Below, piece by piece: positions 15,223-15,904 of a stretch of 33,113 bases of DNA. Numbering within the stretch: position 1 is the stretch's first letter; every line of letters begins with the position of its first letter. The position numbers and the translations under genes were made by a program. Source of the stretch: a virus (lineage: Duplodnaviria > Heunggongvirae > Uroviricota > Caudoviricetes); IMG/VR virus record IMGVR_UViG_2529292715_000006; one strand, 5' to 3'. The notes beneath the pieces were generated by a model. It made no database searches. It was not told where the DNA came from and worked only from the letters and a program-made list of their open reading frames with translations.

Positions 15223-15237
15223 GTGAAATATTATTAT

Positions 15238-15272
15238 TTGACTGTTCTAGTTATTATGCATTTAGTTACAAT
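15238..15272 (+). promoter_or_regulatory. Possible sigma70-type promoter for the membrane-protein moron
   Basis: TTGACT at 15238-15243, then weak -10 candidates (TTTAGT / TACAAT) in AT-rich DNA; low confidence. Confidence 0.3.
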
Positions 15273-15299
15273 ACTCTCACTATTAACAGTGAGGTAAAA

Positions 15300-15854
15300 A
15301 TGAACGAAAATTATATTGCATATGAGACACTTGTAGCAAACCGTGCTGCTGCTGAGTGGGCTTGTTGGGCAATGATTGCATCTTGGGTGAGTGCTGGAGC
15401 TACTATTGTTACTTTGGTTTTGGCGTTCAAGGCATTGTTTACGTGGCGGGAACAAGAGAAAACAAAAGTAAAAATAGATTTTAGGAATGCATTAAAGAAA
15501 TTAAAGACAGCTCTATTATTTATGCCTGTCAATATTGACCCCGAGAAACTCAATGATGAACGAGAGCAAGTTATTGCGAAATGGCTATTTAAAGATGTAG
15601 ATCTTATTAGTCAGCAAATTGAGTTGGGAGAAGAGAATGTTAAAAGATTTGATGAACTTTTGAGTATTTTCGATTGTTGCCAGTCTTCATGGTTTGCGAC
15701 AGAGCACTTATTTGATAATACTGAGTTAGAAAAAGTTTGGCATGAGTTCGAGTCTAACTTTAATAAATATATAAATGGTGGTGAGAGTAAGGATTTACTT
15801 ATGAAAATGCTTGATAAGCTCATCTCTTCTAGATTTGTATTTGAGTCAAGATAA
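15300..15854 (+). CDS. Membrane-anchored protein of unknown function (184 aa), AT-rich moron
   Basis: ATG 15300 with GAGGT SD; single N-terminal hydrophobic helix (WACWAMIASWVSAGATIVTLVLAFKALF) then a charged helical domain; compositionally distinct from neighbours. Confidence 0.7.
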   Translation: MNENYIAYETLVANRAAAEWACWAMIASWVSAGATIVTLVLAFKALFTWREQEKTKVKIDFRNALKKLKTALLFMPVNIDPEKLNDEREQVIAKWLFKDVDLISQQIELGEENVKRFDELLSIFDCCQSSWFATEHLFDNTELEKVWHEFESNFNKYINGGESKDLLMKMLDKLISSRFVFESR

Positions 15855-15904
15855 TTGCCTTTGAGTATTTTTCTTTATTATTTTACTTATTATAAATTTT
15901 TTAT

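Follow-up and report, generated by a model that had tools for sequence, protein, structure and literature searches.

The window analysed here is a 33,113-nucleotide stretch of viral DNA (IMG/VR record IMGVR_UViG_2529292715_000006, Caudoviricetes) and represents a P27-type prophage of Escherichia coli. Between its lysis genes and its HNH and terminase genes lies an open reading frame (ORF) for a protein of 184 amino acids (aa), read on the + strand from 15300 to 15854. Comparison with related sequences indicates that the ORF is a genuine gene rather than a chance ORF and that the gene is optional, horizontally exchanged cargo. The product is predicted to be a bitopic inner-membrane protein with a periplasmic N-terminal tail and a cytoplasmic C-terminal domain. 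Its ribosome-binding site is, by structure prediction, occluded by a leader hairpin that is conserved with covariation across the family. As to function, we tentatively favour a tightly throttled, dose-sensitive inner-membrane effector in phage-phage conflict (exclusion or abortive infection), a reading that we rate as possible and somewhat short of probable.

A family of small proteins in enterobacterial prophages

The ORF was regarded as a genuine gene because of its match to PHROG 6169 (E 9e-74) and because 122 cluster representatives were recovered in an exhaustive hidden Markov model (HMM) search. The PHROG 6169 match was full-length (E 8.7e-74; residues 15-183 on profile positions 2-165 of 165), and this PHROG is annotated as of unknown function. 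The exhaustive profile search covered 1.84 billion cluster representatives; nearly all of the relatives obtained were 130-200 aa long, and many cluster representatives matched the family profile over residues 1-80 only. Word-indexed searches returned homologues from Escherichia, Salmonella, Citrobacter, Klebsiella, Enterobacter, Kluyvera, Kosakonia, Cedecea and Serratia. Every source-named homologue from these Enterobacterales was a 'hypothetical protein', and none had a Pfam domain. Relatives were further encoded in 51 IMG/VR viral contigs and in two species-representative genomes. The family is thus widespread in Enterobacterales prophages, including those of enterotoxigenic E. coli (ETEC) H10407, avian pathogenic E. 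coli (APEC) strains and Salmonella. The ORF was intact and 98-100% conserved across dozens of independent E. coli and Salmonella prophages, and the length and architecture of the family, with many invariant residues, were kept down to ~25% identity.

Insertion between the lysis and packaging genes

The gene and its surroundings comprise the following features:

15300-15854, + strand: coding sequence of the 184-aa protein, a predicted bitopic membrane protein of the PHROG 6169 family
15150-15903, + strand: cargo insert relative to empty-site prophages, ~750 bp, which covers the last part of the Rz1/LysC ORF and then the leader, 184-aa gene and AT-rich spacer
15031-15222, + strand: Rz1/LysC o-spanin ORF inside Rz, from the RefSeq annotation of the 99.6% identical ETEC H10407 prophage (offset 7222)
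15855-15904, + strand: AT-rich spacer (GC 0.14) that abuts the HNH ATG at 15905 and is without a terminator

The coding sequence starts with an ATG, 3 nt after the motif GAGGT (15292-15296). A base composition distinct from that of the flanking genes had been described in the original prediction, and this was borne out: the gene has a GC content of 0.355 (0.31 at third codon positions, GC3) compared with 0.49-0.59 in the flanks, namely 0.49-0.52 in the holin, endolysin and Rz genes on the left and 0.54-0.59 in HNH, terS and terL on the right. The spacers around it are 77 nt with a GC content of 0.26 on the 5' side and 50 nt with 0.14 on the 3' side. The gene was likewise AT-rich in all 16 diverse loci inspected, with GC 0.34-0.43 compared with ~0.5-0.6 for most of the neighbouring genes.

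The 682-bp region with the gene was carried by 27 of 5426 complete E. coli genomes, in each case as a single chromosomal copy; the protein encoded by the ETEC H10407 copy is WP_001005132.1. About 3000 E. coli genomes matched part of the flanking lysis, HNH and terminase DNA, and the content of the Rz1-HNH junction varied among them. A presence/absence comparison with related prophages had been suggested, and four of them illustrate this variation. The junction was empty in L003, where the Rz1-HNH gap measured 26 nt and homology to the window ended at 15149 and restarted at 15904. Two small opposite-strand genes occupied it in L004 (homology ending at 15172 and restarting at 15905), and L005 carried iss/bor on the opposite strand. 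In L006 the junction held a 145-aa gene (homology ending at 15158 and restarting at 15902), which belongs to the present family as a distant relative (HMM E 1e-30). The interval between Rz and the packaging genes had been proposed as a site of cargo such as bor, in agreement with the iss/bor gene of L005.

The last ~70 nt of the Rz1/LysC ORF come from the insert. Since homology ends inside this part of the ORF and resumes at the HNH ATG, the insert supplies the Rz1 C-terminus and the untranslated leader of HNH. We conclude that the gene and its leader were inserted together between Rz1 and the HNH/terminase genes and that they are non-essential. The HNH gene (ATG 15905), which begins at the right edge of the insert, lacks a recognisable Shine-Dalgarno (SD) sequence, whereas AGGA precedes the same ATG in the empty-site prophage L003. 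Two 13-nt direct repeats, at 15231 and 15875, were considered as insertion scars and rejected, as they are short, AT-rich and probably due to chance.

Exchange between phages was apparent in the Salmonella phage 118970_sal3, which has a 98% identical copy of the gene together with a different holin and endolysin and an Rz of 72% identity. Its identity to the window was at least 96% from 14860 to ~15916 and only 66-74% before 14860. The usual place of the relatives was after an Rz-type spanin and before the terminase small subunit, and in E. coli, Salmonella, Serratia, Yersinia and metagenomic phages the gene was nearly always the direct 3' neighbour of Rz/Rz1. The called ORF was co-oriented with the late genes in 15 of the 16 loci; in the other one (L036) the crude caller had taken an overlapping ORF on the opposite strand. 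The genes next to the family varied in their endolysin PHROGs (7, 181), spanin PHROGs (13, 214, 312, 1275), holin Pfam families (PF05106 in the window, PF04971 and PF16080 in Serratia prophages) and terminase types (P27-type, lambda GpA-type, Terminase_3), and therefore the gene tracks no particular lysis or packaging system. One member (L059) was placed between the major tail and tape-measure genes, and those of L050 and L052 adjoin a glycosyltransferase moron. An Enterobacter prophage (L007/L044) had two paralogues, at 3839-4357 and 6001-6552, which lie 1.6 kb apart and are 31% and 64% identical to the window protein.

The gene had originally been described as a moron, which by the Hendrix/Juhala definition is an inserted gene of foreign composition with its own promoter upstream and a factor-independent terminator downstream. 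It is an extra gene of differing composition between genes that are adjacent in relatives, and its description as optional cargo at a hotspot stands, given that the junction is empty or holds iss/bor or other genes in related prophages. The promoter-gene-terminator layout was not recovered in the window copy, for which no terminator was predicted in 15855-15904.

A leader hairpin predicted to sequester the ribosome-binding site

15272-15296, + strand: SD-sequestering hairpin in the 5' leader; the anti-SD CUCUCACU pairs with AGUGAGG, and the SD GAGGT (15292-15296) lies in the 3' arm

A strong SD had been noted for the gene. The motif GAGGT is indeed present, but instead of being freely accessible it is predicted to be locked in the conserved hairpin at 15272-15296, which was found both in the minimum free energy (MFE) structure and in the centroid of the 116-nt leader, with a predicted probability of 0.96 that the SD is paired. 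Of 23 distinct leaders from across the family, 83% had the SD paired at P>0.9 to an anti-SD that precedes it, compared with 6.5% of 184 control genes from the same loci (Mann-Whitney U test, p 3e-12). In an alignment of 16 sequences 88% of the cells were paired, five of the seven pairs had changed on both sides, the covariation score was reached by none of 500 shuffles, and slid registers scored far lower; as the leader sequences are related, all of these family-wide figures overstate their independence, and the stems nonetheless differ in sequence between lineages. No Rfam family was found in the leader or in the upstream regions of the relatives.

The hairpin probably keeps translation low. 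Phage lysis proteins are classically adjusted in amount by sequestration of the SD, as in the sdi structure of lambda S and in the MS2 L gene. In these and in hok-type mRNAs, as would be the case here, a membrane-active protein is kept low or made conditional by a short local hairpin that takes in the ribosome-binding site. The hairpin of the present family differs from these examples in that it is a plain anti-SD/SD stem and is without dual start codons.

The protein is predicted to span the inner membrane once

The protein was divided into three segments:

15300-15356, + strand: acidic amphipathic N-tail, residues 1-19, predicted to be periplasmic; the most conserved segment of the family
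15357-15443, + strand: single transmembrane (TM) helix, residues 20-48, from the Kyte-Doolittle profile, with a conserved small/hydroxyl strip
15444-15851, + strand: basic juxtamembrane helix followed by an up-down four-helix bundle, residues 49-184, predicted to be cytoplasmic; variable in the family

The original prediction of a single N-terminal hydrophobic helix followed by a charged, helical, cytoplasmic-looking domain was supported. The Kyte-Doolittle profile contained one hydrophobic segment (residues ~20-48), the remainder of the protein being helical, and the net charge was -2 before and +5 after the TM helix. Among 53 diverse relatives the average charges were +0.8/-2.5 before and +5.8/-2.8 after it. 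By the positive-inside rule this charge bias therefore places the N-tail outside and the C-domain in the cytoplasm. Neither a lipobox nor a signal peptide was found in the 184-aa sequence.

The AlphaFold model, obtained with a deep family alignment, had a pLDDT of 95.4 and a pTM of 0.79. In this model a continuous helix (residues 3-73) comprises the tail, the TM segment and a basic stalk, breaks at M75-P76 and is followed by the packing helices 81-97, 101-133, 142-158 and 164-176. An a/d strip of small and hydroxyl residues runs along the TM helix at positions 24, 28, 31, 35, 38, 42 and 45, where the fraction of G/A/S/T in the family was 0.91-1.0. Conserved residues of the juxtamembrane helix were W49, Q52, E53, K56, K58, F61, K62 and M75-P76, of which W49, Q52 and P76 were nearly invariant. 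The mean column entropy was 1.75 for residues 1-19 and 3.2 for residues 77-126, the most variable part. Judged by this pattern, the tail, TM helix and juxtamembrane helix form a conserved module, while the putative cytoplasmic bundle diverges fast and is swapped in a sister family.

The sister family (P0013, P0098, P0107, P0115, P0126, P0128, P0133 and P0134; L088 and L168) has the same leader hairpin and the same first ~42 residues. Past residue ~42 these proteins continue into an unrelated beta-rich domain of ~130 aa with an LPxKLEHGE motif, for which no Pfam or PADLOC match was found.

No motif had been recognised in the original prediction, and Pfam, NCBIfam, PADLOC and PDB searches likewise gave no relative. 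Scans of the protein and 58 of its relatives against Pfam, NCBIfam, PADLOC and PHROGs returned only PHROG 6169 plus noise. Within these scans, the 58 relatives gave scattered single matches to PADLOC-DB v2 (E 3e-4 to 7e-3) and no Pfam match at E<=0.01, SieB and YebO included; SieB was rejected as a candidate. A sequence profile search of the PDB with the 184-aa protein returned nothing below E 0.1, and Foldseek against BFVD found only a fragment of the protein itself. Homology to a conserved lysis or packaging accessory protein, proposed as a point that would speak against the cargo interpretation, was looked for and not found. A literature search on the protein accession and on the hotspot returned nothing relevant.

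Transcription and the upstream region

15238-15243, + strand: TTGACT, a -35-like hexamer outside any promoter reported by the scan and without a correctly spaced -10
15252-15272, + strand: TATTATGCATTTAGTTACAAT, containing two -10-like hexamers and homologous to GATAATGCTTTTCGTTACAAT in relatives (compared with L033, L035, L042 and L052)
15202-15241, + strand: AT-rich 17-bp hairpin over the Rz1 stop codon TAG (15220-15222); inverted repeat I3, present in the MFE and centroid folds of 15190-15305 (z -2.71)

The hexamer TTGACT at 15238 had been put forward as part of a promoter of the gene itself. The hexamer is present, but its spacing is 8 nt to TATTAT, 17 nt to TTTAGT (which has no A at position 2) and 23 nt to TACAAT, and its designation as a promoter was not upheld. 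A scan for the sigma-70 consensus on the + strand upstream of the gene gave no site with proper spacing, and the number of promoter-like sites in the region was at the level of shuffled sequence (6 vs 5.0 +/- 2.0). No terminator was predicted between the stop codon of the 184-aa gene and the HNH ATG at 15905, and the late transcript must therefore include the gene. In this the window differs from its relatives, which have intrinsic terminators after the stop codon. In L033, near-identical intrinsic terminators were found on both sides of the cargo gene, at 5883-5902 and 6554-6571 (AAACCGCCTTCGGGCGGTTT / AACCGCCTTAGGGCGGTT), the former before the leader. This arrangement suggests insertion or exchange at the terminator.

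In relatives, a 40-nt element (GGCATTACAGCAGGCATTCACTGAGTGCCTGTGATAATGC) directly follows the stop codon of the upstream gene and is conserved above the level of coding sequence. Its copies were located as follows:

L042, 5898-5937
L033, L035, L050, L052, L058 and L059
L062-L181
phi80 (NC_021190), 44298-44337
phiP27 (NC_003356), 21335-21374

The pattern of its 20-nt core (AGGCATTCACNNAGTGCCTG) occurred in more than 120 IMG/VR contigs, which is a lower bound. The 40-mer was present in 44 GenBank phages, including phi80, phiP27, mEp390, cdtI and many Klebsiella phages, and in 94 E. coli genomes. It preceded at least 43 unrelated clusters of small ORFs, or HNH, and was sometimes arranged in tandem with one small ORF per copy. 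The element folds into an 18-bp hairpin, in which eight pairs had changed on both sides and a U.G wobble was kept in 31 of 32 sequences. The element runs in the direction of transcription and can also be read as an extended -10 (TGnGATAAT). It could be a promoter/operator, an RNA processing or stability signal, or a recombination site, and could serve phage cargo as a shared regulatory, processing or recombination signal. No description of it was found in Rfam or in the searched literature, and it may offer a general signature for finding cargo genes in temperate enterobacterial phages.

The 40-nt element is absent from the window copy, by both sequence comparison and covariance model. The AT-rich hairpin at 15202-15241, with the loop UUAGG, takes the place of the GC-rich element of relatives and resembles it in loop sequence (AUUCAUUAGGUG vs AUUCACUGAGUG). 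Its interpretation as a diverged copy was rejected, since it was unsupported by the covariance model, the best match of which in the window lay elsewhere (E 0.21).

Comparison with known systems

By analogy, the 184-aa protein appears most like the small prophage inner-membrane exclusion proteins HK97 gp15 and P22 SieA, while belonging to neither family. HK97 gp15 is reportedly a moron-encoded superinfection exclusion protein. Like the present gene, it is an optional gene on the late strand between conserved late genes of a lambdoid phage, its product has a single N-terminal TM segment, and in its family the N-terminus is conserved and the C-terminus divergent; the interval in which it lies (major tail/tape-measure) is also that of the distant family member in L059. 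It differs in its length of only 62 aa and in the annotated terminator after the gene. Homology to HK97 gp15/YebO was rejected (hhalign probability 0.09%; no YebO Pfam match in the 58 members).

P22 SieA is an inner-membrane injection blocker of 162-164 aa that has no signal peptide and occurs in several highly divergent sequence types (PMC10883804). The 184-aa protein resembles it as a small prophage-encoded inner-membrane protein without a signal peptide. In contrast to the one TM segment predicted here, SieA is predicted to have three, and its gene lies in the immI/tailspike region and not after the lysis genes. General searches gave no sequence relationship to SieA, no direct alignment to which was made.

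The TM region of the protein (residues 16-56) gave a weak local match to SLATT (NF033634), in which a small membrane effector is likewise combined with a variable sensing part. A relationship was rejected, as the match was below threshold (17 bits vs a cut-off of 41 bits), was found in 2 of the 58 members and joins a protein with one TM segment to a family with two. Unlike in SLATT defence systems, no nucleotide-signalling gene is associated with the 184-aa gene. A role as holin or antiholin was likewise rejected: the window already has a lambda-type holin (PF05106, E 6e-25), no holin Pfam match was obtained, and the gene is absent from close relatives and accompanies several unrelated lysis cassettes.

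Proposed function and alternatives

In the function that we favour, the leader hairpin would hold the production of a dose-sensitive membrane effector low, and the variable cytoplasmic domain would recognise something of the incoming phage or of the infection state. The conserved TM module would then act in the membrane, where it might block genome entry (superinfection exclusion) or oligomerise and depolarise the cell (abortive infection). This role in phage conflict is preferred because of the pattern of a conserved effector and a variable domain, the paralogy, the cargo site next to iss and to a KAP NTPase cargo gene (1.7 kb upstream of the 184-aa gene), and the lack of a fixed lysis partner. 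Functions in phage exclusion and host conversion repeatedly stem from small membrane proteins of prophage cargo, most of which are unannotated. Should the 184-aa protein serve in defence or exclusion, it would be a further single-gene system, and one that is missed by the defence-finding tools now in use. With its confident fold, the split into conserved module and variable domain and the unusual translational lock, the family is a well-defined and cheap target for experiments.

Several points weigh against this proposal. A function in phage conflict is one that we infer throughout, and no match above noise to PADLOC-DB v2, Pfam or NCBIfam speaks for it (best PADLOC match CARF_TM, E 0.017). 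A prophage defence gene would have to be expressed in the lysogen, and this copy has no convincing promoter. The position of almost all members directly after Rz/Rz1 on the late strand would also fit a late role in the lytic cycle. Known injection blockers usually expose their specificity to the periplasm or the membrane, whereas the variable domain of this family is predicted to be cytoplasmic. Moreover, the fold of the four-helix bundle is generic.

A clearly less likely explanation, and the strongest of the alternatives, is that the protein is a late lytic-cycle accessory, made from the late transcript alongside the lysis and packaging proteins, which would adjust late events at the inner membrane, for instance by tuning lysis timing, protecting the infected cell against secondary infection or tethering a late process to the membrane. 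The late-operon strand, the missing terminator before HNH/terS/terL, the want of a credible promoter of its own and the nearly constant position directly 3' of Rz/Rz1 in the phages named above are all consistent with such a role, as is the sequestered SD, a classical device of phage lysis proteins such as lambda S (sdi) and MS2 L. The gene is, however, dispensable, the junction being empty in closely related prophages, and its presence is not tied to that of any one holin, endolysin or spanin family. One member (L059) lies in the tail module and the composition of the gene is foreign to that of the late genes. The terminators on both sides in L033 are moreover a layout typical of independently expressed cargo.

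It is unlikely that the protein is a lysogenic-conversion factor that works at the cytoplasmic face of the membrane and alters host physiology, such as the handling of envelope stress, transport, division or signalling, in a role like that of bor/iss with another mechanism. The presence of iss/bor at exactly the same junction in related prophages would agree with this, as would the carriers, which are largely pathogenic or animal-associated E. coli and Salmonella. Bor/iss is an outer-membrane lipoprotein expressed from its own promoter. Like iss/bor in L005, the 184-aa gene is optional cargo between Rz1 and the packaging genes; it is on the other strand, and its product lacks a lipobox and, by prediction, has one TM helix and nearly all of its remaining residues in the cytoplasm. 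As only 19 of its residues are predicted to lie outside the cytoplasm, an action on serum or host cells like that of Bor/Iss is excluded; a signal peptide is missing as well. Members of the family also come from metagenomic viral contigs and from environmental Enterobacterales such as Serratia, Kosakonia and Kluyvera, and a fast-evolving, swappable cytoplasmic domain suits conflict better than housekeeping. The passage of a TM helix into a four-helix bundle does resemble membrane-anchored signalling modules. The identity to four-helix-bundle sensors (NarQ, TorS, QseE, PilJ and the NIT domain of NasR) was 4-13%, and de novo designed bundles scored equally. In chemoreceptors and histidine kinases such bundles are periplasmic and followed by a second TM segment, whereas that of the 184-aa protein is predicted to lie in the cytoplasm and is the last part of the chain.

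Least likely of all is a selfish or decaying passenger, either a hairpin-silenced membrane toxin of no benefit to phage or host or a disused gene in a possibly defective prophage: the loss in this copy of the upstream 40-nt element and the downstream terminator of its relatives, the nonsense codon in terL of this prophage and the sequestered SD would fit it, but the intact, highly conserved ORF in dozens of independent E. coli and Salmonella prophages, the length, architecture and invariant residues retained to the limit of ~25% identity, and the very confident AlphaFold fold from the family alignment, which implies sustained purifying selection, speak against it.

The proposed phage-conflict effector may also be one of a hitherto unrecognised, modular class of prophage membrane effectors, an extension that we consider doubtful. 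In such a class the SD-locking leader and the first ~42 codons, which encode the periplasmic tail and the Ser/Thr-zipper TM helix, would form a portable unit joined to exchangeable cytoplasmic sensors, helical in type A (that of the 184-aa protein) and beta-rich in type B. In most relatives this unit would stand behind the 40-nt element that marks unrelated cargo.

Neighbouring genes of the window

The terL gene of the window has an in-frame stop codon at 18414-18416 (..NPIMT*CIGN..), where the ETEC H10407 prophage has a Trp codon, and TerL is cut to 514 of 577 aa. The prophage may be packaging-defective, or the stop may be a sequencing error.

Another cargo gene rich in AT (GC 0.33) occupies 12249-13580 on the - strand, between the Q antiterminator and the holin, and encodes the KAP-family P-loop NTPase of 443 aa. 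A functional link between it and the 184-aa gene was rejected, as the NTPase was present beside only 3 of ~24 near-identical copies of the gene in the fetched loci. The NTPase matched PF07693 (E 7e-70), the candidate defence family PDC-S20 (E 1.5e-176) and, weakly, PifA.

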